Source: Candidatus Berkelbacteria bacterium (GTDB lineage Bacteria > Patescibacteriota > UBA1384 > JACPKC01). Taken from it: a stretch of 64,000 nucleotides of DNA. A program made the position numbers and the translations under genes. The stretch is from assembly GCA_016187225.1 (NCBI GenBank), contig JACPKC010000004.1, positions 17,004-81,003 of the forward strand, in the 5' to 3' direction. Numbering within the stretch: position 1 is the stretch's first letter; the number at the start of each line of letters is the position of its first letter. Of this stretch, positions 7,019-34,989 are shown piece after piece. The notes beneath the pieces were generated by a model that did not search any database, had not been told where the DNA came from, and was given only the letters and a program-made list of their open reading frames with translations.

Positions 7019-7059
7019 CCCCCAAAGTTTTTTTCCATCAACTCTGTTATGCTGACAAC

Positions 7060-8409
7060 ATGAAGCTTTCGTTCTATGGAGCGGCGGGTGAGGTAACCGG
7101 CAGTAACTACTTGCTTGAAGCAAAAAACGCCTCTCTAATGGTGGATTGCGGCGCATTTCAGGGGGGCAAAGAGCAAGAGCTTAAAAATGCCGCGCCTTTT
7201 CTTTTTAATCCTAATATAGTTGATTCTTTTATTTTGACTCACGCTCATCTTGATCACGTTGGGCGGGTGGCGAAACTCGTCAAAGATGGCTACCGAGGTC
7301 ATATTTGGTGCACGCCGGCCACCATGGAACTCGCCGAACTTATTATGCTCGACGCGGCTAAGATCATGAGTCACGAAGAGCTTAAGTTTGGCGATGAGCC
7401 GCTATATCATGAACAAGACGTCTATCGCGCGCTCCGCCAGTTCAAAACTCTTGACTATGAAACTAAAATCGAGATCGCGCCCGGGATCGAGGCGCGTTTA
7501 GTCGATGCGGGTCATATTCTTGGTTCAGCTTCGGTGGAAGTGTGGGCAGGAGGCAAGAAGTTGCTTTTTTCAGGCGATATTGGCAATAAAGGAGCGCCGA
7601 TTATTAAAGACCCGAACCGAGTGGACGAGGCGGATTACGTGATTTGTGAGTCAACCTATGGCGGCCGCACGCATGAATCGATTGAAGATCGTCGGGTCAT
7701 TTTAAAAACCGCAATTGATCACTCGATTGCCAAGGGTGGAGTGCTTTTGATCCCAGCTTTTGCGCTCGAACGAAGCCAAGAGTTGCTCTATGAACTTCAC
7801 GATTTACTCACGAACCACAATATTAAAGCCCTGCCAATTTTTCTCGATTCCCCTCTAGCTATCAAAACGACTGAAGTTTTTGGTCATTTTCCCGAGTATT
7901 ACGACAACGAAGCAAAGGAAATTATTCATACCGGCAAGGATTTTTTCGAATTGCCCGGCTTACAATTCACGGAGACGGTTGAACAGTCAAAGCGGATCAA
8001 TAAGACTCCACCGCCCAAAATGATTATTGCCGGTTCGGGAATGATGACGGGTGGGCGGATTCGCTATCATCTAAAAGAGTATCTCGGCAGTCCGCAGACA
8101 ACGATTTTAATTGCCGGCTATCAAGTTAAGGGCACGCTCGGGCGCCGAATTCTAGATGGCGTGAAGACCGTTGATCTTTTTCATGAACCAGTTGCGGTCA
8201 AAGCAGAAGTGATTGCTTGCGGCGCATTTTCAGCTCATGCCGACCATAAACAACTCATGGATTGGCTCACAAGCGTTAAAACGCCCGTGCGTCAGATTTT
8301 CTTTACTCACGGCGATCGGGAAGGGTTGGTCGCGCTCGAGCAGGCGGTCTCAAAAGAACTCAACTGGCAGACCCACATTCCCCGTTTTGGCGAACATATC
8401 ACTTTGTAA
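7060..8409 (+). CDS. MBL-fold beta-CASP metallo-hydrolase (RNA-metabolising)
   Basis: HAHLDHVGR motif with beta-CASP-like downstream regions, about 450 aa. Confidence 0.7.
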   Translation: MKLSFYGAAGEVTGSNYLLEAKNASLMVDCGAFQGGKEQELKNAAPFLFNPNIVDSFILTHAHLDHVGRVAKLVKDGYRGHIWCTPATMELAELIMLDAAKIMSHEELKFGDEPLYHEQDVYRALRQFKTLDYETKIEIAPGIEARLVDAGHILGSASVEVWAGGKKLLFSGDIGNKGAPIIKDPNRVDEADYVICESTYGGRTHESIEDRRVILKTAIDHSIAKGGVLLIPAFALERSQELLYELHDLLTNHNIKALPIFLDSPLAIKTTEVFGHFPEYYDNEAKEIIHTGKDFFELPGLQFTETVEQSKRINKTPPPKMIIAGSGMMTGGRIRYHLKEYLGSPQTTILIAGYQVKGTLGRRILDGVKTVDLFHEPVAVKAEVIACGAFSAHADHKQLMDWLTSVKTPVRQIFFTHGDREGLVALEQAVSKELNWQTHIPRFGEHITL

Positions 8410-8423
8410 TTGATAATTCAGAG

Positions 8424-8921
8424 TTGATAGGTCATAGTTTTGGTATGCAAAATATCTATTTAGGTTCAGATCATGCGGGTTTTGAGTATAAACAAAAACT
8501 TATCCAGCTTTTGCGTGAACATGAACAAGATTTAGGCCTTAGCCAGATTATCGATTTGGGTCCAGAAACTTTAACTCCCGACGACGACTACCCAGAGTAT
8601 GCGTTTCGAGTCGCTGAACAGGTTGCGAATGCGCCCGCCGCTCTTGGAATTTTGATCTGTGGCAACGGTCAGGGCGTGTGCCTTGCCGCCAACAAAGTTG
8701 TCGGCAGTCGCGCCGTTTCGGCCTTTTCGCCTTTGATGGCCGCCTCAACCCGCACAGACGATCATGCCAACATTCTATGTCTGCCAGCTCGATTTTTATC
8801 TTGGGCACAGATTCAAGAGATTGTTACGACTTGGCTTAAAGCCCAGCCGAATCCGGAAATCCGACACCTGCGACGCCTGGCATTAGTTAAAAAATACGAA
8901 ACTAACCGCCCGCGTTTATGA
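8424..8921 (+). CDS. rpiB: ribose-5-phosphate isomerase B
   Basis: IYLGSDHAGFEYK and GNGQGVCLAANK are typical of the RpiB/LacAB family. Confidence 0.85.
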   Translation: MIGHSFGMQNIYLGSDHAGFEYKQKLIQLLREHEQDLGLSQIIDLGPETLTPDDDYPEYAFRVAEQVANAPAALGILICGNGQGVCLAANKVVGSRAVSAFSPLMAASTRTDDHANILCLPARFLSWAQIQEIVTTWLKAQPNPEIRHLRRLALVKKYETNRPRL

Positions 8922-9553
8922 CTCCGACGCTTGTGCCAGCGATTTTAGCAAAGACATCAGCGGAATTGGCACTCCAATTCGACCAAGTGCGAAATTTGAG
9001 CTCACTCTTGAGCTATGATGTCGCTGATGGTCAGTTTGTACCCAGTCTCACTCCGTCCCCGCGTGATTTTCCACAAACATCTAAGGCAGAAATCTTTTGG
9101 CATTTGATGGTGGAAAAACCTTTGGAATTCATCGATGAATGCTTAGCTTTACCGACAAAAATCATTGCCGTCCAGGCAGAGGCCGGCGGGGCGCCAGCAG
9201 CCATTGAGAAGTTAGCAAGTTCACCTGTTTTAACTGGTTTGGTTGTTAACCCGAGCACGCCGGTGCGCGCGTTGGAGCAATTTTTACCCCAAGTCGATTT
9301 GATTCAAATTATGACTGTTATCCCGGGTGCTCAAGGCCAACATTTTTTACCGGCAATGTTGCCTAAGTTGAGCCAGCTCCGTTGCCTGAAGTCTGATCTA
9401 ATGCTGGCAGTCGATGGTGGGGTGAGTAGTGCTACAATTGAGTCAGTCCTACGTTATCGGCCCGATTATATTGTGGTGGGAAGCGCTCTAACGCGCGCGC
9501 GCGATCCAGCTGAAGAGTGGCGCGTTTTGAGTCGTTTGGTTGCCGCAAGTTAA
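8918..9553 (+). CDS. rpe: ribulose-phosphate 3-epimerase family protein (divergent)
   Basis: YDVADGQFVP, HLMV, QVDLIQIMTVIPGAQGQHF and VDGGV align with Rpe motifs. The first metal-binding His positions are replaced by Y and Q. Confidence 0.55.
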   Translation: MTPTLVPAILAKTSAELALQFDQVRNLSSLLSYDVADGQFVPSLTPSPRDFPQTSKAEIFWHLMVEKPLEFIDECLALPTKIIAVQAEAGGAPAAIEKLASSPVLTGLVVNPSTPVRALEQFLPQVDLIQIMTVIPGAQGQHFLPAMLPKLSQLRCLKSDLMLAVDGGVSSATIESVLRYRPDYIVVGSALTRARDPAEEWRVLSRLVAAS

Positions 9554-9569
9554 GCGCAAGAGGAGGGGT

Positions 9570-10397
9570 GTGACGATTTGTGAGCTTGAGAAGCAAGCGA
9601 ACGCAATTCGGCAAGACATTATTAAGATGCTTGTCAGAGCCGGTTCTGGTCACTCGGCCGGCCCGCTTGGGATGGCCGATGTTTTTACCGCACTTTATTT
9701 CAATTCACTCCATCATAAGCCAAAACAGCCAACTTGGTCGGAGCGCGATCGAGTCGTGCTTTCAAACGGTCATATCTGTCCGGTGCTCTACGCCACTCTT
9801 GCCCATGCGGGTTATTTCCCAAAAAAAGAACTGTTCACCTTACGCGCTTTTGGCACACGACTTCAAGGACATCCGCATCGCGGAACTTTGCCGGGAATTG
9901 AAACTACCTCGGGGCCGCTTGGCTCGGGTCTCTCGCAGGCCGCCGGAATGGCGCTTGCCGGTCGGATGGACGCCGCTCGCTGGCGAGTTTATTGTTTGAT
10001 GTCTGACGGTGAGCACGACGCTGGCAACACCTGGGAGGCAGTAATGTTTGCTGGCAAGGAAAAATTCTCGAATCTGACGGCAATTTTGGATCGGAATAAT
10101 ATTCAAATCGATGGTTTTACAGAAGATGTTATGCCGCTTGAGCCACTCGCGGAAAAATACCGCGCCTTCGGTTGGCAAGTCTTGGAAACCGATGGGCATA
10201 ATATCAAGGCGATTATCGATTCAGTTAATCAGGCGCGTTCAACTTTTGAGCAACCAACGCTGATTCTTGCGCATACGATTCCGGGCAAGGGTGTGAGTTT
10301 TATGGAGCAGAGATTTGAGTGGCATGGCAAGTCGCCAAATAAAATCGAAGCCCAAAAAGCCCTCCATGAGCTCCGCACCTTGCAAGGTAAAATTTGA
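9570..10397 (+). CDS. tkt: transketolase, N-terminal (TPP-binding) subunit
   Basis: GSGHSAGPLGMADVF and GHPH motifs. GTG start 3 nt after AGGAGG. The track ORF extends back to a TTG at 9540. Confidence 0.8.
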   Translation: MTICELEKQANAIRQDIIKMLVRAGSGHSAGPLGMADVFTALYFNSLHHKPKQPTWSERDRVVLSNGHICPVLYATLAHAGYFPKKELFTLRAFGTRLQGHPHRGTLPGIETTSGPLGSGLSQAAGMALAGRMDAARWRVYCLMSDGEHDAGNTWEAVMFAGKEKFSNLTAILDRNNIQIDGFTEDVMPLEPLAEKYRAFGWQVLETDGHNIKAIIDSVNQARSTFEQPTLILAHTIPGKGVSFMEQRFEWHGKSPNKIEAQKALHELRTLQGKI

Positions 10398-10404
10398 GGG
10401 GAAC

Positions 10405-11355
10405 ATGAGTAGTCTAGAACGAGTGCCAATTCGGGATGGTTACGGCGACGGTTTGCTGTTAGCTGGCAGGCAAAATCCTAGTGTAGTCGCATTGTGTGCC
10501 GATCTAACTGAATCAACGCGAACAGAGCTGTTTGCCAAGGCTTTCCCCAAGCGATTTGTGGAGATTGGGGTTGCCGAGCAGAACTTGGCAACGGTGGCTT
10601 CAGGCTTAGCCGCGGCCGGAAAAATTCCTTTTATGACCAGCTACGCAAGTTTTTCGCCGGGCCGAAACTGGGAACAAATTCGCACCACCATTTGCTACAA
10701 CAACCAGCCTGTGAAGATTATTGGTTCACACGCGGGAATCTCGGTCGGTCCTGACGGTGCGACTCATCAAGCGCTTGAAGATATTGCGCTTATGCGAGTG
10801 CTGCCGAATATGACTGTGCTTGTGCCCTGTGATCATATTGAGGCGCGGAAAGCCACACTCGCGACTCTCGATCATCCAGGCCCGGTGTATCTGCGCTTGG
10901 CGCGCGAACCAACGCCTGTACTCACCACCGAATCAACGCCGTTCAAGATTGGCCAAGCGCAAGTTTATAAATTGGGCACAGACGTGAGCTTGGTTGCCTG
11001 CGGCCCGCTTGTATATGAAACGCTTATCGCCGCCGAAGAGCTCGCTCTTAAAAAAATTTCTGCTCGGGTGATTAATTGTCATACGATTAAACCCTTAGAT
11101 GAAGCAACTCTGCTTGCCGCTTTCCAAGAAACTGGCGCTGTGGTTACGGTTGAGGAGCATCAGATGGCTGGCGGCTTGGGTGGCGCGATTGCTGAATTAG
11201 CGACTCAATACGCGCCAGTGCCGATCGAAAGAGTTGGTGTGCGTGATCGCTATGGCGAATCCGGTCCGCCAGAGATTTTGTTGGAGCATTTTCATCTGAA
11301 AGCGCGTGATATTACAGCGGCGGCAGTGCGCGCCCTTAAGCGCAAGGAGGCATGA
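10405..11355 (+). CDS. tkt: transketolase, C-terminal (pyrimidine-binding/C-terminal domain) subunit
   Basis: ATG after a GAGGGG ribosome-binding site. EIGVAEQN and a transketolase C domain. The gene is split from the N-terminal subunit. Confidence 0.85.
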   Translation: MSSLERVPIRDGYGDGLLLAGRQNPSVVALCADLTESTRTELFAKAFPKRFVEIGVAEQNLATVASGLAAAGKIPFMTSYASFSPGRNWEQIRTTICYNNQPVKIIGSHAGISVGPDGATHQALEDIALMRVLPNMTVLVPCDHIEARKATLATLDHPGPVYLRLAREPTPVLTTESTPFKIGQAQVYKLGTDVSLVACGPLVYETLIAAEELALKKISARVINCHTIKPLDEATLLAAFQETGAVVTVEEHQMAGGLGGAIAELATQYAPVPIERVGVRDRYGESGPPEILLEHFHLKARDITAAAVRALKRKEA

Positions 11356-12242
11356 TGGCGAGTGCGGTTCAGCTTTTTAATCAAGCCAGGCATGAAGGTT
11401 GGGCAATCGGCGCTTTTAATGTTGCCAATCTTGAAACTATTCAGGCGATCTGTCAGGCCGCGGCGCGGCTTGAGGCGCCGGTGTTAATTGAATCATCGCC
11501 CGGTGAAACCGAGTATATTGGTGCAAAGGCGTTAGCCGATTTGGTTTCGGCCTATCGCGAGCGCTATGGCGTGCAGGTCTTTCTCAACCTCGATCACGCT
11601 ATAACTGAAGAAGTAATCACCGAGGCGCTCGCAGTGGGCTATGATTTGATTCATTTCGATGGTGGCGAACTTGAATTTGCTGAAAACCTAAAGCGCACTC
11701 AACAGCTTGTCCGCGTTGTTCATCGTCATAAAAAACTTATTGAGGGCGAGATCGATCATATCACTGGTTCCTCAACCTTGCATAAAGAATCAGCCAAAAC
11801 AGCTCAAGACAGTGCGCATTTTACAGATCCAGAACAGGCACACGAGTTTGTGCGAGTTACCAATATCGATACACTCGCCGTCTCGATCGGCAATGTGCAT
11901 GGGGTCTACGCCACGCCGCCCAGGCTCGATCTTGAACGACTTGCAAAAATTCACACTCAAGTACCCTGCTTCCTTTCATTGCATGGCGGTTCTGGTATAT
12001 CCGAAGCAGATATACGGGCCGCGATTAAAGCGGGTATCACAAAGGTCAACGTTAACAGCGAGTTGCGGATTGCGTTTTTGACGGCGCTTCAGAAAGCCGT
12101 CAAGGCGCCCAAGGAAATGGCGGCCTACAAATATCTCCCGCCGGTGATTAAGGCAGTTCAAGCAATTGTTGAGAAAAAAATCACCCTCTTTGGGAGCACG
12201 GGCAAGGCGAAACGAACCTGGATTAAAAGGATAATTGCATGA
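11352..12242 (+). CDS. fba: class II fructose-bisphosphate aldolase
   Basis: GAFNVANLE, LNLDHA and SLHGGSG motifs. Confidence 0.85.
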   Translation: MMASAVQLFNQARHEGWAIGAFNVANLETIQAICQAAARLEAPVLIESSPGETEYIGAKALADLVSAYRERYGVQVFLNLDHAITEEVITEALAVGYDLIHFDGGELEFAENLKRTQQLVRVVHRHKKLIEGEIDHITGSSTLHKESAKTAQDSAHFTDPEQAHEFVRVTNIDTLAVSIGNVHGVYATPPRLDLERLAKIHTQVPCFLSLHGGSGISEADIRAAIKAGITKVNVNSELRIAFLTALQKAVKAPKEMAAYKYLPPVIKAVQAIVEKKITLFGSTGKAKRTWIKRIIA

Positions 12243-13246
12243 AGACTATGAATTCTGTCGATTTTCTCTCAATTGGTGACACGCAGTACGATACGATTCT
12301 TTCACTCGCGCCAGAGGAAGTCTCGGTTCGCTGTCGATTGAACCGCGAAGATTGCAAAATGTGTCTCGATTACGCTGGTAAAATTCCAGTTTCAGAACTT
12401 CACGCTATGGTTGCTGGGAATGCGGCGAATGTGGCGGTGACAGCGGCGCGCCTTGATGGCACCGTGGCGCTCTGGACGCTTCTTGGCGATGATGAGATTG
12501 CCGATGAGGAAATCCAGACCCTTCAGCGTGAGGGAATTACGACCGCGTGGATGGAAAAAGTGCCTGGCGCCGAGAGTAATCGTTCGACCGTGATCACCGT
12601 CAATGGAGAGCGGACAATTCTTGTCTATCATGCTCCACGGCGCTATGTTTTGCCTAAAAATTTGCCGTCGGCGCGCATCGTCTACTTCACAAGTATGGGG
12701 CCGGGCGCCGAGACGCTTTTCCCGGCGGTGATTCGCTATGTAGAACGCACCGGAGCGCGTTTAGTTTACCAACCAGGCACGTATCAGCTTCGCCTGGGCG
12801 CCGAGCGCGCGCAACCACTCTTGGCGCTGGTGAACTGCATAATCATGAATAAAGAGGAAGCGCAAGCCTACACTCATCATCGCGCCGGCAAGCCTTTGGA
12901 GTTACTGCGTGCCTTGAAACGTTTAGGCGCCAAGATCGCTGTCGTTACTGATGGCACGAACGGCTCCTACGCGACCGATGGCGAGACAAGTTGGTCTATG
13001 GGCATTCGGCCTGAAATTCCGCGGATTGAAGCAACAGGCGCGGGCGATGCTTTCGCCTCGGCTTTTGGTGTCGCGCTCTTAGAAGGCGCAACGATTCCCG
13101 AAGCGCTTCGCTGGGGTACATTTAATGCCGAGGGCGTGATTCAGGAATTCGGCCCGCAAAAAGGCATTCTCAAGCGCAAGCAACTTGAAGAGTTATGTCT
13201 CCGTTACCCGCAGTTCGTGGCGAAAGAAATTGAAAGGAAGGCATGA
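12239..13246 (+). CDS. PfkB-family carbohydrate kinase
   Basis: Ribokinase-like fold with the GAGDAF motif near the C-terminus. Confidence 0.7.
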   Translation: MKTMNSVDFLSIGDTQYDTILSLAPEEVSVRCRLNREDCKMCLDYAGKIPVSELHAMVAGNAANVAVTAARLDGTVALWTLLGDDEIADEEIQTLQREGITTAWMEKVPGAESNRSTVITVNGERTILVYHAPRRYVLPKNLPSARIVYFTSMGPGAETLFPAVIRYVERTGARLVYQPGTYQLRLGAERAQPLLALVNCIIMNKEEAQAYTHHRAGKPLELLRALKRLGAKIAVVTDGTNGSYATDGETSWSMGIRPEIPRIEATGAGDAFASAFGVALLEGATIPEALRWGTFNAEGVIQEFGPQKGILKRKQLEELCLRYPQFVAKEIERKA

Positions 13247-20340: not shown

Positions 20341-20625
20341 TGAGAAAAATTCATTTATCTCCTCCTTGGAAAGTTCCGCCACGGTATGAAGACGAACCTG
20401 ATCGAGAGTTTCGTGTTGTTTCCTCTCGATCTGGTTCGACACAACCTTCTTTCTGATCAAGATTTTTCCTCCCTTTTATCTAAATTGAGAACGGCGGACC
20501 GTTCCCACGAACACGAATACTACACACTTTTTCCACAGTGGCAAGTCTCAAGCTATGTTAAACTGACATTTGTGCCTAAATGGGTGCAAACTTTTATCAA
20601 TATAAGCTTTCATAGAGGAGGGGGA

Positions 20626-23600
20626 ATGTTCAAACGTTTCTGGAGTGTACTGGCGCCGATCACACTGGTCGTGGCCATTGCGGTCCTCACTGTTGGTCCA
20701 AATAACGTGACGACGTTATTTGAGATCGACACCGCCAGAGCCGGCGATATCACAAGTCCAACGTGGACTCTTTCAGATACTACAGCGTCCGCCACGAATG
20801 TGACGTATACCCATACGTTCACGACCGAAACCGCGATCCCAATCAATACCGGTGGAGCTGAAATTTGGCTCAGCGTCCAGCCCGGAATGGAGCCGCCGCA
20901 ATTCACAAGTAGCACACTTGCAAGTGGTAGCACAGAGGGGTTTGCGGGGCAGGAAATCAATTTTTGGTCCGAGGGCAAGGGCGGGATGAGTATTTCGATT
21001 CACAATAAAGGGACAACGGCAATTCCGGCTGGTGAGATCACGCTTAAATTTAGCGGTGTCACTAACCCAAGTCGTGGCGGTGCGTTGCGAACTAATACTT
21101 ATACAAAAGATTCCTTTACTCCGCTCGACGGTCGCCAAGGGCCAGACAGTAATGGCGTGATCGCGATCGGTACGCAAAATGTCCAGGGAACGGTAACTGA
21201 AGCTTCGACCAGCGCTCCCGTCGCCAATTTCCCGCTTGAAATTCACGGTGAAAACGGGTTTTGGCAAGCAACAACTGCCACGAACGGCACTTATGGCTTT
21301 TATGGTGTGCCAGCTGGCAATTACATGCTTGAAATGAGTTACGCAATGGATCCAAATAGCAGTAACGCCTCCTCGATCTCGCAATATCTGCGTTTTGAGC
21401 AAATTCAAGTCACTGTCCCAGCCTCCGGCACAGTGACACAAAATATCTCTCTCCAAAAATCAAGCAAAGTCATTACTGGCGTTGTGAAATATTCAGATAC
21501 TGGCGCCGTGGTGGCCAATGCCAACGTCAATGCTTTTTCAAATGGCCCAGGCGGCTTTGCTTCTAGCCCAACAAACTCAAGTGGTGAATTTACCTTGCGA
21601 GTTGGCGGCGGCAACTACTATATTAATGTCATGCCGAACTTTTTCGGCGGTCCGGGCGGTCCAGGTAATCAATCACAAACGGGAAATGATTTTTTCCCAC
21701 GCGCGCCGCGCCAGGTCAGTTTTGTCCAGGCCGCATCAGTTGCTGAAACAATTGCAATGGGTGACGTTCTCGTCGATCGAGCCGATGCAACGGTAACCGG
21801 CAAACTTGAAAAACCGAATGGTAGCGGGGTTAATATGGGCGGCATGGGCGCAATGAATTTCCGCACTCACACTATGATCCCAATCATGGTCCAGCAAGAC
21901 GGCAATTTTTCATTTAAGGCCAAATCTGGCACCGGCACATGGGAGTTAAATTACTTTGATCCAGGCGCATCGGTTGCTATGCCACCAGATACACAGTTTA
22001 AGATCGATCCAGGCGCAAACAATCTCGGCACAATTAAAATGGTTGCGCTCGATAAAACCATTACCGTTAACGCCAAACGGATTGATGGCGGTAAAAACGA
22101 GGGCATTGCCAATATGCCAGTCATGACCTTTCAAATTAAACGACCGGGCCCGCCATTTATGAGCTTTACTGATTCAACTGGAACAGCGCAGATTAAGGTC
22201 CCGGCTGGCTTTGAAGGTCGGGTGATGGGCATTCCGGGTGGCAAAGGTGGCCCTGGCAAACGCGAGGGCGGTGAAGGTGATGGCGAAGAATTCGGTTGGC
22301 TCCAGATGTTTAACATTGCCGCGGCTTACGCCCAAGAAGGCCCGGGTGGTGGCTCCGCAGGTGGTTTTGATCAAGAAACTTCTCGTCTCTTCCCAGTTAC
22401 AGCGCCTCAACGCGCCAAAGCCGGCGATACCGTAACGCTTAACTTCGATCTGGCAGATAAAAGCGTAACGGTGCGGACGGTAGACAAAAATAATAACGCA
22501 GTTTCAGAAGGGGCCTTTGTTAATGCCCGGCCATTGGGCAGTGGTTTTACTGGCAAGGGCGGTGGTTTTGGTGGCTCGACATCCGGTGGAAGCGGCACAA
22601 TCTACACTACTAAAGGCGACTTTACTTTTAACACTTTTTTCCCACCGGATTCTAACTATATGGGAATTGCGAAAACTGTCACGGTCGGCGATAACGGCGC
22701 CACAGCCGATCTTTTAGCGGCAACCAAGACAGTGACAGTCACTGGTGAAGTTCGGGATGCTTCAAATAATAACGCGGTCGTTAAAGACGGTTCGCTCGGC
22801 ATTATGATCGGTCTCTTTGGCGAGAGTGGCTTCAGCGATGGCAAATACAACCCAGCCGATGGCACATATACGGCAAAGTTTGTGCCTGATACGAAATTCA
22901 GGATCGGTGTTGCCGCTGGCGATCCAGGTATGGTGCAAGAGGGTGGCTATATTCCTAACATTAGCCCTGTTGAACTTGAGGGCAATGACGGTGAGACTTT
23001 AACTCAACACGTTACCTTGGCAAAAGTTGATGCCAAGATTAAGGGCACAGTCAAAGATCAAAATGGAACAGCAATTAAAGGCGTTACAATTACCGCTGAT
23101 CCTGGTTTGGCTGAACTGATCGGCGAAGGCCCAGGCGGACCTGGTCCGGGCCCAGAAGAAGAGGGAATCGACTTTGGTTTCTCTGATGTAACCGAAGATG
23201 ATGGTAGCTACGAAATTGATGTGGCGGCGAATAAGTACAGCATGATTGTGAATGCGCGCAAGGAAGGTTTATTTGTCACGCAGAATGTGACCGTTGACAT
23301 TAAGGCGCGTGAGACGAAAGAAAATATTAACCTAAGTCTGCAAAAGGCTGATGCCAAGGCGACTGTTGAGGTCAATAATAAAGACAGTAACGATCTTGGC
23401 GGCGCCGAGGTGCAGATTTTTAATGATGAAGGTACGATTAATTTCTCGTCAACGGCGGGTAGCGATGGCAAAGTGACGATTGATCTGCCGGCCGGGACAT
23501 ACAACATTAAGGCCGGCAAAGATAGCCCAGAAGATAATGGCAAGGTTGAGGGTAGCGCCATTCAAAAAGTGATTATCGATAAAAACGAAACCGAAAGCAT

Positions 23601-24543
23601 GGTCTTCAAAACAGAAACGGATACCGGCGTCTTACCCGCTCCGGTTGTGCAGGAAATTAGTAGTAGTTCGCCGAGCACGGTCAGCCTCTCGAAGGGTGGC
23701 GATGAGAAAATTGCTTTGAATATTCCGGCTGGCGCCTTGAGTTCAAGTAGTTCGAGTAGTGATGAGAGTAGCGATTCAAGTAGTTCGAGTAGTGATCCAC
23801 TTCTATCGGTCACTCCGCTCGATAAAGAGCTTGTGCCAACCAAGGCTTTGGAGCCAATTGTCGGCATGAGCGTCGACGCGACTGACTCAAGCGGCAATGC
23901 AATTACCTCTCTCTCCGGTCAGGTATCCGGGTCGATTAAATACGATGCGAACAAACTTCCAACCGGCGTGAAAGAAGATAATTTGGAAGTTCGCTCTTTT
24001 AATGAAGATAGCGGAATTTGGGAACCAGTTATTTCGAGCGCAGTTGACAAAGCCTCCGATAAAGTAACGTTTTCAACTAACCACTTTACCGACTTCGCAA
24101 TTGTGGCCGCGACCGATACAACTGCACCATCAGCGCCGACAAATGTCGCCGCCGCTGACCTTGGGACAAGCGGTAAAGTTGCGCTTACCTGGACTAACCC
24201 GAGCGATTCTGATTTCAACCATATTAATATTTACCGCTCAACGACGTCTGGCACAGTTGGGAGTAAAATTGGTTCAACAACTGCCTCCAGCACAACACGT
24301 TATGAGGATAGTAGTCTGACAAATGGCACAAAATACTATTATGTAGCGCGGTCAGTTGATGCGACTGGCAATGAATCGGCGAACACGACGCAGGTTTCAG
24401 CGACACCCAGCGCTACGACCTTGCCACTCACTGGGCCAGTTGAGACATCGAATAACGGCTTACTCATGGTCGTGGCAGCATTCCTTGCCGCCCTGGCAGG
24501 CGTAGGTGCAGGTATTGCGCACAAGCAGTATGCGTCGGCCTAA
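20626..24543 (+). CDS. giant LPXTG-anchored cell-surface protein (Cna-B/carboxypeptidase-regulatory-like repeats, Gly-rich linkers, FN3 domain)
   Basis: ATG after a GGAGGGGG ribosome-binding site and a signal/TM segment (MFKRFWSVLAPITLVVAIAV). The C-terminus ends LPLTG, then a hydrophobic helix, then HKQYASA. An FN3-like segment is present (TWTNPSDSDFNHINIYRS). Confidence 0.8.
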   Translation: MFKRFWSVLAPITLVVAIAVLTVGPNNVTTLFEIDTARAGDITSPTWTLSDTTASATNVTYTHTFTTETAIPINTGGAEIWLSVQPGMEPPQFTSSTLASGSTEGFAGQEINFWSEGKGGMSISIHNKGTTAIPAGEITLKFSGVTNPSRGGALRTNTYTKDSFTPLDGRQGPDSNGVIAIGTQNVQGTVTEASTSAPVANFPLEIHGENGFWQATTATNGTYGFYGVPAGNYMLEMSYAMDPNSSNASSISQYLRFEQIQVTVPASGTVTQNISLQKSSKVITGVVKYSDTGAVVANANVNAFSNGPGGFASSPTNSSGEFTLRVGGGNYYINVMPNFFGGPGGPGNQSQTGNDFFPRAPRQVSFVQAASVAETIAMGDVLVDRADATVTGKLEKPNGSGVNMGGMGAMNFRTHTMIPIMVQQDGNFSFKAKSGTGTWELNYFDPGASVAMPPDTQFKIDPGANNLGTIKMVALDKTITVNAKRIDGGKNEGIANMPVMTFQIKRPGPPFMSFTDSTGTAQIKVPAGFEGRVMGIPGGKGGPGKREGGEGDGEEFGWLQMFNIAAAYAQEGPGGGSAGGFDQETSRLFPVTAPQRAKAGDTVTLNFDLADKSVTVRTVDKNNNAVSEGAFVNARPLGSGFTGKGGGFGGSTSGGSGTIYTTKGDFTFNTFFPPDSNYMGIAKTVTVGDNGATADLLAATKTVTVTGEVRDASNNNAVVKDGSLGIMIGLFGESGFSDGKYNPADGTYTAKFVPDTKFRIGVAAGDPGMVQEGGYIPNISPVELEGNDGETLTQHVTLAKVDAKIKGTVKDQNGTAIKGVTITADPGLAELIGEGPGGPGPGPEEEGIDFGFSDVTEDDGSYEIDVAANKYSMIVNARKEGLFVTQNVTVDIKARETKENINLSLQKADAKATVEVNNKDSNDLGGAEVQIFNDEGTINFSSTAGSDGKVTIDLPAGTYNIKAGKDSPEDNGKVEGSAIQKVIIDKNETESMVFKTETDTGVLPAPVVQEISSSSPSTVSLSKGGDEKIALNIPAGALSSSSSSSDESSDSSSSSSDPLLSVTPLDKELVPTKALEPIVGMSVDATDSSGNAITSLSGQVSGSIKYDANKLPTGVKEDNLEVRSFNEDSGIWEPVISSAVDKASDKVTFSTNHFTDFAIVAATDTTAPSAPTNVAAADLGTSGKVALTWTNPSDSDFNHINIYRSTTSGTVGSKIGSTTASSTTRYEDSSLTNGTKYYYVARSVDATGNESANTTQVSATPSATTLPLTGPVETSNNGLLMVVAAFLAALAGVGAGIAHKQYASA

Positions 24544-25126
24544 TGTCCCTGCCCTGCCCAGGGTAGCAAGTCTTCTCTTACTCCTAATTGTAATTGGTGG
24601 CGCGGTTGCGGGTGTTCAGGCTAAGAGCGCCCGTCCCGTCACCCCAGTCCAAGAGGTAGTTGCCGAAGAGACCGCTCTTGAGGTGCCACCCAAGAGCGAG
24701 AGTTACTCCCTCGTGATCGAAGAACTAAAATTGGACGTTCCAATTGTTGAAGATGTGCCCGGCACCGACGAGAAGGCTTATTTGGCGGCGCTTACACATG
24801 GCGTAGCTCACTATGCCGGCACACCCAAGCCTGGGCAAGCCGGCAACAGTTTTATTTTCGGCCATTCCGCCTACTTAAAAGGCGATAAAGGCGATTACAA
24901 CGAAGTTTTCAGAGAACTCAATAAATTAATTAAAGATGAAACCTTTATAGTCAAACACAACGACGAAGTTTTGAACTACAAAGTGTTTCGGAGCGAGGTC
25001 GTAGAAGCAAATGATTTTTCTATTCTTGATCAAACTGATCAAGAAATTGTAACCTTGATGACTTGTTGGCCGCCTGGCACAATCGAAAAACGTTGGGTGG
25101 TTCAGGCTGAACGAGTTAAGAGTTAA
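24530..25126 (+). CDS. sortase (transpeptidase)
   Basis: N-terminal TM anchor. Conserved His in FIFGHSAY, catalytic Cys in VTLMTCWPPGT, and Arg in RWVVQAERV. It overlaps the 3' end of the LPXTG gene. Confidence 0.75.
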   Translation: MRRPNVPALPRVASLLLLLIVIGGAVAGVQAKSARPVTPVQEVVAEETALEVPPKSESYSLVIEELKLDVPIVEDVPGTDEKAYLAALTHGVAHYAGTPKPGQAGNSFIFGHSAYLKGDKGDYNEVFRELNKLIKDETFIVKHNDEVLNYKVFRSEVVEANDFSILDQTDQEIVTLMTCWPPGTIEKRWVVQAERVKS

Positions 25127-26826: not shown

Positions 26827-28311
26827 TTATAGTTCTAAAAGTTGCTCGTAAATCCGAACCATCGCGAGCGTGTCGAGTTCACAGTAGTGCAGGAGGTCTT
26901 TCTTAATCTGTTCGCGCCGATCTGCGTATTTGCCATTGAGCACAGTTTCCATCCAAAGCCGTTGCGCCGTTTGCCCTTCTTGGATATTGAGTGTCGCATA
27001 GCTCAACTTCGGCACAAGTACCGGTAAGATTTTTTTGATACTTGCACTTCCAAAAAAACGGTAGTCTTCATACCAGTGCGCCGAGAACGGTAGCATAAGG
27101 TCGATAATTCGGGTATTGAGTGATTTCATAAACGCCCGGTGTTCCGGAAACATCTCACCAAGATCTAAGTTGCATTGCTTTTCGAATTTTTCATTCCAGA
27201 CGAGAATGGTACCAATTTCGCCGAAATCCTCTCGCAGCTGTGTCACAAGAGGCGGACCGGGATTCGTGGTATCGAAGTGAAGAAATTCTCGGTGCTCAAG
27301 CTCGCCATCGGGTTCGCGTAGGATGTGAAGAGAATACTCCATGGGGAGTTGCTGAAACGGGCGCATCTCGTTCATCGGCGGGATGATGCCGCCAATTGTT
27401 TCATAGTCAAAGAAGTAGAGTGGGAATTGGAATGACTTAAGAAATGTCCGAATCTGCTCGAGCTGGATGACTGGCTTCTCAAGTCTCGTCAGTTCCACTT
27501 GGCGGCGGTGTTTGGCATTGTCGAATTCAAAACGATCCGGAATATGCTTGATGAGTTCGATACCCTGATCCTCAAGTTCACCAATTAGGTCGTTGTTCGG
27601 TGGATTGATCTGATAGATATTATACGCGTCGGTGTTGAGTTTCAGGGTATAAAAAATCTCGAGCCACTCTTTAAGATATTGTTGTTGGGCATGACGAGGC
27701 GAAATGTCTGGCCGTTCAGATGATTTCATGACTGTCAGAGCCTGCTTGATTTTTTGTTCTGTTTCGGCGAGTTTGGCAGTTACCTTTTCGGTGAGTTCAA
27801 TAATTTGCGTGATCGCTTTCGCCTCGATATTGCCATGAAGGGTGTAGGTATTGTTCACAACAATTACCGAGATTTTCTCGATAGCCAGTCCAGCACGCTC
27901 GAGCACTATCTTTTGGAATGCCAGATCATCGATGTGTTCCGGCTTATCTTTTGTACTCGATTTGACTTCATAGAGATCGAACGTATTTTTGCCGGTTCGA
28001 TCGAGAATATCGAAGATGCAGGTTAGCTCATCCGCTTCGACGCGCCCTTGGAAGATAGTTTTAGCGTTATCGTTTAAAGTCGATTGCGTGCGAGCCGTGA
28101 GCGCCCGATATTCAGTGAACCCATTAAAACCGAGTTTTACACCCTCCGGAAACCGCGCCTCCGCATAGGCCTCGAACGCATGGCCGGCATCGAAAATTGC
28201 CTGAACGTTGGCGTCGATAGGAGGCAATTTTTCCGGATTGTGTTTTTTAAGCCACAGCCACGCCGGGTGCTTGAGAAACATCATGTAGTCGGATTTAGAA
28301 AGTTGCATCAT
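26827..28311 (-). CDS. DUF2779-like predicted dual nuclease (N-terminal PD-(D/E)XK, C-terminal DEDDh 3'-5' exonuclease)
   Basis: LSKSDYMMFLKHPAWLWL N-terminus and a D...DLYEVK PD-(D/E)XK-like motif. YFFDYETIGG (exo motif I) and HYCELDTLAMVRIY (exo motif III). Confidence 0.5.
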   Translation of the reverse strand: MMQLSKSDYMMFLKHPAWLWLKKHNPEKLPPIDANVQAIFDAGHAFEAYAEARFPEGVKLGFNGFTEYRALTARTQSTLNDNAKTIFQGRVEADELTCIFDILDRTGKNTFDLYEVKSSTKDKPEHIDDLAFQKIVLERAGLAIEKISVIVVNNTYTLHGNIEAKAITQIIELTEKVTAKLAETEQKIKQALTVMKSSERPDISPRHAQQQYLKEWLEIFYTLKLNTDAYNIYQINPPNNDLIGELEDQGIELIKHIPDRFEFDNAKHRRQVELTRLEKPVIQLEQIRTFLKSFQFPLYFFDYETIGGIIPPMNEMRPFQQLPMEYSLHILREPDGELEHREFLHFDTTNPGPPLVTQLREDFGEIGTILVWNEKFEKQCNLDLGEMFPEHRAFMKSLNTRIIDLMLPFSAHWYEDYRFFGSASIKKILPVLVPKLSYATLNIQEGQTAQRLWMETVLNGKYADRREQIKKDLLHYCELDTLAMVRIYEQLLEL

Positions 28312-28858
28312 TCTTGTTATCGCTTTCATATGAACCGTTCGGCACGTTTTGATGCCACGCTAATTGGTACTCGGCCAGTTGTTTGGGCGTAAAAGCGACA
28401 AACCGGATTTCACTGAACTGATCCGGATACTGCTTAATCCACTCGACTACAGTTGCAATAGCAATCGTTGTCGCTTCGGCGGCGGGGTAACCGTAAGTTC
28501 CGGTGCCAAGTGATGGGAAGGCGATACTGCGTACCTGACGCTCTGCCGCAAGAATCAAGCATGATCGGTAACAGTGCGCGAGGAGTTCAGCCTCTTGGCC
28601 TGCATGGTGACTATAAACTGGAGCCACTGTATGAATCACGAAACGGACTGACAGTGTGTGCCCCCGTGTCACAACGGCTTGGCCAGTCTCGCAGTGACCA
28701 AGCTTCTGACATTCGGTCCAAAGTTCTGGTCCAATTGCCCGATGAATGGCGCCCGAAACGCCTGAACCGGGCCGCAAATGTGGGTTCGCCGCGTTAACGA
28801 TCGCATCAACTACTTGTTTTGCAATATTGCCTTCAACGAAAGTCACCCGAGTGGTCAT
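28295..28858 (-). CDS. macro domain protein (ADP-ribose/O-acetyl-ADP-ribose hydrolase, YmdB-like)
   Basis: DAIVNAANPHLRPGSGVSGAIHRAIGPEL and GTGTYGYP motifs. It overlaps the downstream nuclease gene. Confidence 0.8.
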   Translation of the reverse strand: MTTRVTFVEGNIAKQVVDAIVNAANPHLRPGSGVSGAIHRAIGPELWTECQKLGHCETGQAVVTRGHTLSVRFVIHTVAPVYSHHAGQEAELLAHCYRSCLILAAERQVRSIAFPSLGTGTYGYPAAEATTIAIATVVEWIKQYPDQFSEIRFVAFTPKQLAEYQLAWHQNVPNGSYESDNKNDATF

Positions 28859-28953
28859 GGTAAGATTGTAGCTCGTTTTTTCAGGATTAAATAGGGGGAG
28901 CGATAGGACTACTGGACGCTGTTTGCACATTGAAACTACCGTGCGGCCAGACC

Positions 28954-29802: not shown

Positions 29803-31485
29803 TTAATCTCCCCGATACCCACTTTGAGTATCTTCCGGCCAAATAGTATCCTTACAGTTCTTCCGGTATTGATCTAATTCAGTTTGAATGATATTTCTCT
29901 GATCCATGCCGAAAATTCCATAGTAACTTCCTGCATCGCCATAGACACGACGAGGACAAGGGTTAGCACTCGAAGCGGGGGCGCTTGCAGAATCATTTTT
30001 ACTATTTTTATTAAAAACAGACCAAATAAGTATTATCAAGAATACTGAACAGATCACTAAAGCAACAATAATCATTTTGTTTGCTTTGTGGATCGCTAAG
30101 ATGATGGCGACAAAAATTACCAAAAGCGTACCGACGGCGATTAGGGTGAGTAGTAAATTTGAATTTGAATTTTTTGTTGACTGACCTTGTGTAGCGAATG
30201 AGTTTTGTACGGCTGGTCCCTGGCCAGAACCGATTGCATAAAGACTCCCGGCGATCGATGTAAAATAAATCGTACCGTCAGAGCCGATTGCCGGCGATGA
30301 GTCAACTCCGCTTGAGACAGGTATTTTCCACTTTTCTTTTCCATCTGGAGAATAGGCGTAGAAGTAATTTGCTAAAGTTCCAAAATATATTGTGCCGTCG
30401 GAACCGAGTGCCGGTGATGAGCTTAGAGCCTCATATTGATTTGGAGTTTGTGAGCGCCAAAGCTCCTTGCCGCTTGTATCGTATCCGTAAAAAATTCCTC
30501 CCCAGTCACCGAAAAAGAGCTTAGAGTCATTTGAAAGTGCCGGAGTAATGCTTAGTCCGTTTTCAAAAGGCGTTCGCCATTTTTGCTCTCCATCGGAAGT
30601 TAGAGCATAAGCAAAAGCTTTTCGTGGATCCTTAGCGCCCTTGGCGAGAAAATATATCGTCCCGTCAGGCCCGATCATTGGAGAACCCTCTTGAACGCCT
30701 TCCGGAGGATTGAATTTCCATTTAATTTCTTTGTTAGTAGTTATTGCGAAGAGCATATTGGCACAATTGTTATCTGCGCAATCGTTCGCTGAAACTAAGA
30801 TAGTACCGTCATCGGCAATAGCTGGTGTTCCATTGACCCACGAAGAGCCGCCTGGGTCCCAGCTCCACTTTAGGCTTCCATCTGGATTAAATGCATAAAA
30901 ATAAGAAGGTCTCTCTTGCGGTCTGCCGGTTTCAGTTGGCGGATAGAGTTCGCTACCCACATAGATCGTTCTATCAAGTCCAATGGCTGGAGTTGGCCAG
31001 GCATTTTTAAAAGTAAAAACAGGATATTTCCATTTTTCACTTCCGTCAGATGTTATAGCATAAAAATTGCCACTCATCGGCAAAAAATAAATTGTTCCAT
31101 CATTACCTATTGTTGGAGAACCTTGAGCACAGCTTTCGCCACCCCATTCGATAGAACGCACTGGCTCGCCGCCTTTGAATTTCCACTTTAAACTCCCATC
31201 TTGATTGATCGCATAGAGATAACATCGGTGATCGGCGAAATAAATCACACCTTTTGCGTCAATAACAGGAGATGTTTCTATCTGCCCTTCGGCTTTGAAT
31301 TCCCATTTGATAGTGCCATTAGTTTTTGAGGTATCGTACTTAGATTGTCCAGTTAACTTTCGATCACCGTGGAACACTGGCCAAGATGAATCGGCAAGAC
31401 CAGAGATAGTAGCAAGAGACGTTTCTGTTTGAATAAAAAGAGCGACAAATAATCCGAGAATGGCGAGTGACTTTTTAATTTTCAT
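29803..31485 (-). CDS. PQQ-like beta-propeller repeat surface protein with C-terminal TM helices
   Basis: Signal peptide. Repeated DGS(L/E)KWK(F/Y) and GTIYF motifs. Two C-terminal TM helices and a cytoplasmic tail. Confidence 0.6.
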   Translation of the reverse strand: MKIKKSLAILGLFVALFIQTETSLATISGLADSSWPVFHGDRKLTGQSKYDTSKTNGTIKWEFKAEGQIETSPVIDAKGVIYFADHRCYLYAINQDGSLKWKFKGGEPVRSIEWGGESCAQGSPTIGNDGTIYFLPMSGNFYAITSDGSEKWKYPVFTFKNAWPTPAIGLDRTIYVGSELYPPTETGRPQERPSYFYAFNPDGSLKWSWDPGGSSWVNGTPAIADDGTILVSANDCADNNCANMLFAITTNKEIKWKFNPPEGVQEGSPMIGPDGTIYFLAKGAKDPRKAFAYALTSDGEQKWRTPFENGLSITPALSNDSKLFFGDWGGIFYGYDTSGKELWRSQTPNQYEALSSSPALGSDGTIYFGTLANYFYAYSPDGKEKWKIPVSSGVDSSPAIGSDGTIYFTSIAGSLYAIGSGQGPAVQNSFATQGQSTKNSNSNLLLTLIAVGTLLVIFVAIILAIHKANKMIIVALVICSVFLIILIWSVFNKNSKNDSASAPASSANPCPRRVYGDAGSYYGIFGMDQRNIIQTELDQYRKNCKDTIWPEDTQSGYRGD

Positions 31486-31491
31486 TATCTG

Positions 31492-32367
31492 CTAAAGTTC
31501 CGGATAGCCAAAAATCGGAATTTCATAGTTGCCATATTTCCAGACACGCTGGCTCTTCTCTGGAGCGGGCGTAAAAATATTATCAATTGGTTGCGCACTT
31601 GATTTAGGATCGACATAAACACCATCGCCACAATTTGTGATGATGTTATTTTTGATAATTTGCGATCCAGCAATAGACGCTATGCCGGTATGGCAATCAT
31701 CTATCATATTGCCTGAAACTTCTTGATCGCTGTTGAACTTAAGATCAATCCCCTCGTGTCCCGCGTCAGATAAATAATTTTTAATTATTTTGATATTTGA
31801 GTTAGCCGACGATATCGCTCCCCACAGAGCGTGTCGAGATATAGTATTTTGGATAACGCTATTTGGCTGTTTTCCAGTCGGGTTAATTCCGTTGCGAGTA
31901 TATTCAACAGTAACATTGTCTACGATACTCTCATCGCCTTGAAAGATTATCGCCTCCCAATCAGCTAAATTTGGTTTTTTTTCCGCAGATGTGAAGACAA
32001 TGGGTTTCGCTTGTTCACCTTTGGCGATGATTTTTTTTAAAATAAAAAGACTAGAGTGAGTGGTTGAATACGCTTTGAGTCGTGTTGGGTCTTTGTCGTT
32101 AAAACCATCTGGCGGTATTTCGTCCCCCCAATGGCGATCATCCCCAACAGAAAATTTAATCGTCGTTCCAGGTAAAACAGTCAGGTCCCCTAGAATTACA
32201 ATATCCCCGGTAACGAAAATGTTATCACTCCAAACCTGATTGCCGATAAACCACCCGCTTATAGAAGCATTGGATGTTTGGGTTGTTGAAAAAAATTTGT
32301 AGGTGGTGAAGATAATAATAAAAACTATAATTATCAGCAAAATATATGATATTTTTTTCCAGTTCAT
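31492..32367 (-). CDS. secreted right-handed beta-helix repeat protein
   Basis: N-terminal TM. Parallel beta-helix-like repeats NCGDGVYVD and DDCHTGIAS. Confidence 0.4.
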   Translation of the reverse strand: MNWKKISYILLIIIVFIIIFTTYKFFSTTQTSNASISGWFIGNQVWSDNIFVTGDIVILGDLTVLPGTTIKFSVGDDRHWGDEIPPDGFNDKDPTRLKAYSTTHSSLFILKKIIAKGEQAKPIVFTSAEKKPNLADWEAIIFQGDESIVDNVTVEYTRNGINPTGKQPNSVIQNTISRHALWGAISSANSNIKIIKNYLSDAGHEGIDLKFNSDQEVSGNMIDDCHTGIASIAGSQIIKNNIITNCGDGVYVDPKSSAQPIDNIFTPAPEKSQRVWKYGNYEIPIFGYPEL

Positions 32368-34560: not shown

Positions 34561-34989
34561 TCAGGATTTGCTCCGGCGGTGAAGAAGCCAGTTAATCCAT
34601 GTTTGGGCATTTGAACTTGCTTTATCAAAAAACCCTTTAGCTGTATCTGTTTGTGTATCTTTGGCAACTACCGGGAATTCAGTCGTTTGTGATTGATTGT
34701 CGCGGTTTTTGGCAATTAAAACAACAGTTTCACCGGGTCGTTTTAGACCCAATCGGCGGCGCGCTTCCAACTCACGATACGCCGTGCTTTGATAGTAAAA
34801 AATCTGATTTTTTAAATATGCAAGCCGATACTCCAAGGTTTCAATATCCTCTTTAAGTTGACGAATCTGTTCACTGATGGAGTAGTTTTTTTGGATTGCT
34901 CGGCCAAGGTTAATAAATACATAACTTAACATAAGCACTGCTAGTGTTCTGATCACAATCAAACCTAGACGAGCTTGAATTCGCGCCAT
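34561..34989 (-). CDS. septum formation initiator family protein (FtsB/DivIC-like)
   Basis: N-terminal TM, a coiled coil, and an ELEARRRLGLKRPGE signature. Confidence 0.6.
   Translation of the reverse strand: MARIQARLGLIVIRTLAVLMLSYVFINLGRAIQKNYSISEQIRQLKEDIETLEYRLAYLKNQIFYYQSTAYRELEARRRLGLKRPGETVVLIAKNRDNQSQTTEFPVVAKDTQTDTAKGFFDKASSNAQTWINWLLHRRSKS

Follow-up and report, generated by a model that had tools for sequence, protein, structure and literature searches.

Does a macro-domain gene that overlaps the start of a nuclease gene form a functional module with it, or are the two simply neighbours? The question is raised by a gene pair on the minus strand of a 64-kb stretch of a Candidatus Berkelbacteria genome; this whole stretch is referred to here as the window. 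The original prediction, made from the letters of the window, proposed that the pair is a module, either for repairing nucleic-acid ADP-ribosylation or for defence/anti-defence. That reading is not upheld: orthologs of the two genes are unlinked, the macro protein is not a DarG, the window holds no DarT, and the surroundings are housekeeping in character. The pairing is lineage-specific and defines no functional module. The two are probably independent genes of known families, which lie next to each other and overlap by chance in one compact genome. The macro-domain gene would encode a stand-alone hydrolase of the MacroD/YmdB class, in a minority variant without the catalytic Asp. The second gene, a member of the Pfam family DUF2779, would encode a Cas4-like site (D107, E121, K123) and a DEDDy exonuclease site (D308, E310, E383, Y482, D486) on one polypeptide, and its product may serve general DNA-end processing or clean-up in small genomes.

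Conservation of the pair as neighbours in related genomes, the point on which the original prediction itself hung, is not seen. DUF2779 loci were taken from reference genomes (80 loci), from viral contigs (13 loci) and from the contigs that carry the six closest relatives (57-74% identity); two loci belonging to the window's own organism (L081 and L082) were left out of the linkage count. The control consisted of 80 loci centred on the unrelated gene YchF (L105-L184). A macro gene lies within about 6 kb at one of 100 other DUF2779 loci (1/98, plus L103 and L104, which have none). The same search finds one near YchF at 1/80 loci; since the control rate is equal, adjacency of macro and DUF2779 genes is no commoner than chance. 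A macro neighbour is absent from all six of the closest DUF2779 relatives. No fusion of a macro domain with DUF2779 is found among the best 120 word-indexed matches or the best 150 representatives.

The sole other juxtaposition found is at L070, in a metagenome-assembled genome labelled Pseudomonadales (stretch 6001-13221). There, a 168-residue macro gene, also without the catalytic Asp (7403-7909, minus strand), overlaps the 3' end of the DUF2779 gene in convergent orientation. A type III restriction-modification (R-M) operon, with a restriction helicase (8854-11703) and a methylase (11713-13221), ends with this macro gene. A second candidate, a 'macro' gene 5' of DUF2779 at L042, was rejected; the weak tblastn match is spurious and the open reading frame (ORF) encodes an unrelated 250-residue protein.

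DUF2779 has no conserved operon partner. Its tightly linked same-strand upstream neighbours (n=44) fall into 37 families, with at most three members per family. When all neighbours are clustered, the commonest family occurs at 8 of about 80 loci, and none is a fixed partner. Recurrent annotated neighbours include RpoD, DnaG, TypA, DsbA, a RecD/Pif1-like helicase, an N6_N4 methylase, an RNase_H_2 exonuclease, a histidine kinase and a serine recombinase. The commonest neighbours, each still infrequent at 6-8 of about 80 loci (L015, L016, L020 and others), include the dnaG-rpoD pair upstream of DUF2779, a gene for a DsbA-like thioredoxin directly downstream, and one for an RNase_H_2 (PF13482) predicted 3'-5' exonuclease two genes downstream.

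Both ORFs are present on the minus strand as originally described. The macro-domain gene (28295..28858) encodes 187 residues, beginning MTTRV. A longer form of 211 residues would start at an upstream ATG at 28930 (maximal ORF 28295-28930); ATG 28858 is the preferred start, because homologs in the PDB and in sequence databases align from residue 1 or 2 of the short form. The DUF2779 gene (26827..28308) encodes a two-headed nuclease of 493 residues. The 500 residues originally given correspond to its maximal ORF (26827-28329), and this numbering is kept for nuclease residues throughout. In the alignment, all 23 homologs start with MxLSKS, and P0001, an identical protein in the database, has 493 residues; the true start is thus almost certainly ATG 28308 (MQLSK). 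With that start, the overlap runs from 28295 to 28308, a length of 14 nt which includes the macro stop codon (28295-28297). The overlap of 17-35 nt first proposed fits other in-frame ATGs of the nuclease, which give 17 or 35 nt, and not the start supported by homology.

The 14-nt overlap probably reflects co-transcription of the two genes, which is also to be expected from the tight packing of a small genome, and possibly translational coupling. The 95 nt directly 5' of the macro start (28859..28953) are intergenic and include a TACAAT hexamer (28865-28870), 6 nt 5' of ATG 28858. By its resemblance to a -10 box, this hexamer may be part of a promoter belonging to the pair, with a leaderless or near-leaderless transcript. 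A consensus promoter scan does not call TACAAT, and in this region such calls are no more frequent than chance. Over 26-33 kb, the counts from consensus scans for promoters and terminators equal the shuffled expectation, with nothing useful at the pair.

The macro domain was correctly recognised in the original prediction. The protein is a homolog of MacroD/YmdB-type ADP-ribosyl hydrolases and O-acetyl-ADP-ribose deacetylases, and matches Pfam Macro (PF01661) with 138.6 bits against a cutoff of 22 (E=1.2e-40). The core Pfam domain (28460..28798) holds the NAAN motif (28784-28795, residues 22-25), the Gly-rich loop GVSG (28751-28762, within GSGVSG, residues 31-36) and a second phosphate loop, GTGTYGY (28487-28507, within GTGTYGYP, residues 118-125). 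The positions of NAAN, the Gly-rich loop and GTGTYGYP are invariant or nearly so in a 121-sequence alignment of the window protein and its 120 best homologs. Matches in the PDB are human MACROD2 (4iqy, 3e-39), MacroD1 (1e-38) and E. coli YmdB (1spv/5cb3, about 1e-35). Several NCBIfam O-acetyl-ADP-ribose deacetylase equivalogs match; the best, NF001664, scores 176.5 bits, a near miss of its cutoff of 200. The macro protein most likely hydrolyses O-acetyl-ADP-ribose, mono-ADP-ribose on acidic protein residues, or both.

NCBI lists an identical macro protein under Candidatus Berkelbacteria (Patescibacteria, Candidate Phyla Radiation). The next-best match (P0122) is 60% identical; the remaining matches are about 50% identical and come from diverse, unrelated phyla. 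On these database matches, the macro protein appears phylogenetically isolated, without close relatives in related genomes. Both contigs of P0122 end directly after the macro homolog, and no downstream neighbour is visible.

The macro protein differs from most of its homologs at the catalytic site. The canonical MacroD Asp is replaced by Ser35 (codon 28754..28756), changing GVDG to GVSG, and Pro replaces the first Gly of the loop. Asp occupies this position in 109/121 aligned sequences and Ser in six, including the window protein and its identical copy. Variants without the Asp, with the loop Pro-Gly-(Gly/Ser)-Gly-Val-(Ser/Ala/Cys)-Gly, make up about 10% of the alignment. The equivalent residues are D35 in YmdB and D40 in OiMacroD; the OiMacroD D40A mutant loses 86% of its catalytic efficiency but is still active with about 14% left, and in Af1521 and TTHA0132 the natural residue is Ala (PMC5413906). 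Because the mutant keeps activity and natural Ala variants exist, the window macro protein is, by analogy, probably a slower enzyme rather than an inactive one. Its substrate preference may also differ from that of the classical MacroD enzymes.

The nuclease partner likewise bears out the original assignment to a DUF2779 protein with PD-(D/E)XK and DnaQ-like domains; the evidence comes from Pfam, a structural model and conserved residues. DUF2779 (PF11074) is matched at residues 305-430 over the full profile (1-126), with 117.4 bits against a cutoff of 23.3 (E=6.1e-34). A sequence search of the PDB with the nuclease gives no match even at E<=10, and structure prediction was therefore used. The AlphaFold2 model, built on a 24-sequence alignment, has a mean pLDDT of 93 and a pTM of 0.85. 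The motifs FDLYEVK, YFFDYET and HYCELD, noted at the outset, are all present in the translation.

The N-terminal domain (27715..28308, about residues 8-205) is a Cas4/RecB-like PD-(D/E)XK nuclease with a conserved D...ExK triad. Its catalytic residues are D107 (28009-28011), E121 (27967-27969) and K123 (27961-27963); FDLYEVK contains E121-x-K123, and Q139 is also invariant in the site. A helical linker follows (27430..27714, about residues 206-300, from the secondary structure of the model); this region has no significant family match. The C-terminal domain (26830..27429), which contains the DUF2779 Pfam region, is a DnaQ-like 3'-5' exonuclease with four acidic residues and a Tyr. YFFDYET supplies D308 (27406-27408) and E310 (27400-27402), E383 (27181-27183) lies in a WNxxFE ExoII-like motif, and HYCELD (residues 481-486) supplies Y482 (26884-26886) and D486 (26872-26874). 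D410 (27100-27102) is an additional invariant Asp of this domain in the 24-sequence alignment. The exonuclease is of the DEDDy type and not DEDDh as first labelled, because Y482 of the Y-x3-D motif is invariant whereas H481 is unique to the window sequence. Y482 and D486 are conserved in 24/24 sequences (the window protein and 23 homologs), and in the homologs residue 481 is E, R, K or Q. The earlier label arose from HYCELD, in which a His lies by chance at residue 481 and so gives the H-x4-D spacing of DEDDh enzymes with D486. Both nuclease sites are predicted to be active, and the protein most likely degrades or resects linear DNA ends from both polarities.

The resemblance of the N-terminal domain to Cas4 is limited. 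Pfam Cas_Cas4 matches residues 105-200 with 18.3 bits, below the cutoff of 22.7. The nuclease has three Cys (104, 386 and 483), of which only C104 is in the N-terminal domain; with three Cys in the whole protein, the four-Cys Fe-S cluster of Cas4 is lacking. Of Cas proteins, PADLOC yields only weak Cas4 matches among the window proteins, with no cas1 or cas2; CRISPR repeat arrays were not searched for.

The family is large. DUF2779 homologs number more than 4,300 word-indexed matches, mostly from Patescibacteria, and 7,092 clusters at 50% identity (E<=1e-3) in 1.84 billion representatives. The two-nuclease architecture of DUF2779 is already known. Majorek et al. 2014 (PMC3985635) assigned PF11074 to the clade of 3'-5' exonucleases within the RNase H-like superfamily and recorded a DUF83 PD-(D/E)XK domain associated with it. 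In a 2026 mSphere paper, MMSYN1_0389 of JCVI-syn3.0 is analysed as the fusion of a Cas4-like nuclease with a DEDD nuclease that has Tyr instead of His; both of its sites are predicted to be active and the gene is quasi-essential. The Mollicutes homolog of DUF2779 is quasi-essential in a phage-free minimal cell (PMC13621843). In Mycoplasma bovis, a transposon mutant of the homolog is among the disrupted-gene mutants of a study of survival in cell culture (PMC7373297).

The window was also searched for a partner transferase and for defence systems. A DarT-like partner, which the original prediction would lead one to look for, is not found: no DarT or other ADP-ribosyltransferase model matches at E<=1e-4 among the 59 proteins of the window. 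The neighbours of the macro gene are the DUF2779 nuclease and a secreted protein, with no adjacent DarT. The macro protein scores 15.9 bits against the NCBIfam model antitoxin_DarG (cutoff 250). PADLOC recognises no defence system, either in the pair or among the window proteins. The pair gives weak matches to Cas4 (E about 1e-3) and DarG (E=6.5e-4), which share no common system, and the DarG match covers the macro part only. The PADLOC scan of the window was made without FtsH and a helicase fragment (25-690), whose matches had flooded the list; the remaining matches are generic (cysteine desulfurase, as SspA/DndA, and ABC or AAA ATPases). A jackhmmer search finds no R-M gene in the 64 kb.

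R-M or GmrSD-type genes are found near DUF2779 elsewhere. The survey used jackhmmer with 13 R-M query proteins on loci L001-L080, L083-L087, L103 and L104, excluding the two loci from which queries were taken. R-M-like ORFs lie within 6 kb at 21/78 DUF2779 loci and 0/80 YchF loci (Fisher p=7.6e-8), although this control is not matched by taxon. Restricting the count to loci of 9 kb or more gives 18/60 and 0/35 (p=9e-5). The YchF loci are higher in GC content (median 0.555, against 0.394 for DUF2779 loci) and the counts were therefore stratified by GC. Below 0.46, R-M genes are present at 20/60 DUF2779 loci and 0/26 control loci (p=4.8e-4), with the control still imperfect. The R-M-linked DUF2779 loci are mainly of low GC (<46%) and mostly from Patescibacteria. 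R-M distances are roughly uniform within 6 kb on either side, with no strong preference for proximity; the association is thus one of islands and not of operons.

In each of the six closest relatives, defence-type genes lie no more than one or two genes from DUF2779, and the R-M types vary. P0005 is accompanied by type I HsdM/S/R with an AAA_15 gene, and by GmrSD; P0008 by HsdM, DUF3800, an EcoR124_C fragment and Pif1. P0013 has Pif1 and an MmeI-type enzyme, and P0002 has Pif1, a ParB-methylase and a serine recombinase. P0017 (L086/L087) and P0018 (L104) share the gene 5' of DUF2779, which encodes a HemolysinCabind protein of about 286-290 residues. On the 3' side the cargo differs, with MazG and a type III R-M system in P0017 and an MmeI-type enzyme and a PLD-SNF2 protein in P0018. 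A shared 5' gene with different 3' cargo is the pattern that an insertion hotspot in the 3' flank of DUF2779 would produce. One DUF2779 homolog is fused to the defence protein MzaC. Other rare fusions join DUF2779 to DUF4391 (P0370) and to a DUF2726/REase-like domain (P0266). These fusions point the same way as the R-M association.

The association suggests that restriction systems often have the two-headed nuclease as a companion, which might for instance degrade the DNA that they cleave. The flank of DUF2779 may instead be an insertion hotspot. The verdict on the window pair is unchanged, because the window has no R-M gene.

Could the window pair nevertheless be cargo of a defence island? 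On this account, the flank of DUF2779 is a variable defence slot, the macro protein provides immunity or counter-defence against ADP-ribosylating toxins or phage effectors, and the DUF2779 protein is a post-restriction nuclease. The R-M enrichment, including that of the low-GC stratum, speaks for it, as do the type I, IIG or III R-M, GmrSD, Pif1 or recombinase genes near all six closest relatives, the P0017/P0018 comparison, and a macro protein without close relatives in related genomes. Against this, no R-M or other defence gene is near the pair, PADLOC recognises no system, the control loci are not matched by taxon, and the Mollicutes homolog is quasi-essential in a cell that has no phages. 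Nor is recent transfer indicated, as both genes are within about 1.1 standard deviations of the window in GC content and in GC at third codon positions (GC3). Phage origin is rejected: neither protein, nor that of the upstream gene, has a PHROGs match, and 2.9 million viral contigs contain only 13 DUF2779 loci. Defence-island cargo is therefore an improbable reading of the pair. A more elaborate form is also quite unlikely. It would make DUF2779 an R-M or defence partner in Patescibacteria, degrading restricted foreign DNA from both ends without RecBCD or AddAB; its flank would be a variable cargo slot, occupied here by a translationally coupled macro gene without the catalytic Asp, which would counter nucleic-acid or protein ADP-ribosylation by invaders.

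MacroD-type enzymes can strip ADP-ribose from phosphorylated nucleic-acid ends in vitro. The pair might be a small repair module, arising from a lineage-specific coupling: ADP-ribose adducts on the bases or phosphorylated ends of DNA or RNA would be taken off by the macro protein, and the co-translated nuclease would process the cleaned ends. The same-strand overlap, the atypical active site of the macro protein and the second, differently arranged juxtaposition at L070 are consistent with this. It is rendered even less probable than defence cargo by the rate of adjacency, which equals that of the control, by the absence of a macro neighbour in all six closest relatives, by the lack of a DarT-like transferase in the window, and by the lack of macro-DUF2779 fusions among the best matches and representatives inspected. 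A YmdB-like role, in which the macro protein would regulate the adjacent nuclease through protein-protein contact instead of acting as an enzyme on ADP-ribose, is very improbable: E. coli YmdB is reported to bind RNase III directly and to lower its activity (PMC4329070), the macro protein is a close YmdB homolog (1e-35) and the overlap would yield roughly equal amounts of both proteins, but the linkage is unconserved, DUF2779 is unrelated to RNase III, and the ADP-ribose-binding motifs are all intact, which argues for a ligand-dependent enzyme. Even taken together, as lineage-specific curiosities, these three readings are rather unlikely.

It should be noted that several points weigh against two independent genes brought together by chance. 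A 14-nt overlap on the same strand is an arrangement which often accompanies functional coupling. The absence of the catalytic Asp places the macro protein in an unusual minority, and a non-standard substrate is possible. At L070, too, a macro gene of this kind abuts DUF2779, though convergently and within an R-M operon. The search for an ADP-ribosyltransferase covers the 64-kb window, not the whole genome. The literature contains no biochemically characterised member of DUF2779. Given the R-M enrichment and the MzaC fusion, a purely housekeeping role for the nuclease may be an incomplete description.

As a module, the pair carries little weight: in this single case, an ordinary macrodomain hydrolase stands beside a member of a known nuclease family. 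DUF2779 itself is of wider interest. It is one of the few conserved unknowns which are quasi-essential in the minimal cell JCVI-syn3.0, and it is very common in the genome-reduced Patescibacteria. The present analysis adds structural confirmation of both nuclease domains from a confident model, the DEDDy assignment, and a first, imperfectly controlled hint that DUF2779 lies next to R-M systems at a far higher rate than the YchF control. The last is the sole item worth following up. If the association holds against a taxon-matched control, clean-up of restricted or broken DNA becomes a concrete hypothesis for the function of DUF2779.

The surroundings of the pair are as follows. Three genes on the same strand lie upstream; they encode an unannotated 282-residue protein, a PQQ/BamB-like beta-propeller and a NosD-like beta-helix. 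All three proteins have N-terminal signal or transmembrane segments, in agreement with the original description of the pair as the end of a minus-strand string of secreted-protein genes. The other window genes have housekeeping or envelope functions: FtsH, DivIC, an H+-pyrophosphatase (H+-PPase), VIT1, a sortase with an LPxTG surface protein, GlmS, a beta-CASP RNase, CTP synthase, phosphoglucomutase, GroEL, MacB/FtsX, YchF and an M16 peptidase. The beta-propeller and beta-helix genes (29803-32367) and a DivIC-like gene (34561-34989) are markedly more AT-rich than the rest of the window, with a GC content of 0.39-0.43 (z -1.7 to -2.8; GC3 z -1.9 to -2.3). Within 20386-25126, a 1385-residue surface protein is encoded whose C-terminal end carries an LPLTG sorting signal, a hydrophobic segment and a basic tail. 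The sortase gene (24506-25126) overlaps the end of this gene, giving a sortase-substrate pair in a Patescibacteria genome. The helicase fragment at 25-690 is an ORF with a superfamily 2 (SF2) helicase C-terminal domain and matches 33 PADLOC helicase models (PsyrT, BrxHI, DpdF, DrmD and others); these matches look like generic helicase similarity, not a defence system.

Comparison with known systems places each gene in its own family. The pair resembles DarTG in having a macro domain and in the overlap of genes within an operon. It differs in that the macro protein is of the MacroD type and not the DarG type, its partner is a nuclease and not a transferase, and no DarT is present in the window. 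The DarG models have 338 and 329 positions; at 187 residues the window macro protein is much shorter, and so has no counterpart of the DarG C-terminal region. It is far closer in form to the MacroD/YmdB enzymes (E. coli YmdB, human MacroD1 and MacroD2, and Oceanobacillus OiMacroD). With these it shares a single domain of about 180 residues, NAAN, the Gly-rich loop, the HRA motif and the G-x-G-x-Y-G-Y-P phosphate loop; it is set apart by Ser for the catalytic Asp, Pro for the first loop Gly and a score under the NCBIfam equivalog cutoff.

The nuclease can be compared with the families of both its domains. Unlike Cas4 and the RecB-family nucleases (EXO5, MGME1, Dna2, AdnA/AddB), it has no Fe-S cluster and is fused to a second exonuclease. 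It differs from CRISPR Cas4 in its sub-threshold Pfam score and in the lack of cas1, cas2 or other Cas matches among the window proteins. With the DEDD exonucleases (Pol III epsilon, ExoI, TREX1, ERI1, MrfB and polymerase proofreading domains) it shares the RNase H-like fold and the motifs ExoI (D-x-E), ExoII-like (WNxxFE) and ExoIII (Y-x3-D). Its distinguishing features are the DEDDy type, a Glu and not an Asp as the ExoII acid, the extra invariant Asp410 and the PD-(D/E)XK fusion. The MMSYN1_0389 / UU173 family of Mollicutes is longer (about 650 residues, against about 495 for the Patescibacteria form), the window protein scores 62.5 bits against the UU173 subfamily cutoff of 225, and the overlap of the window gene with a macro gene is an arrangement seen nowhere else. 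The architecture is nevertheless the same: a Cas4-like PD-(D/E)XK domain comes first, then a DEDD exonuclease in which Tyr takes the place of His, and the D...ExK triad and all four acidic residues are kept.

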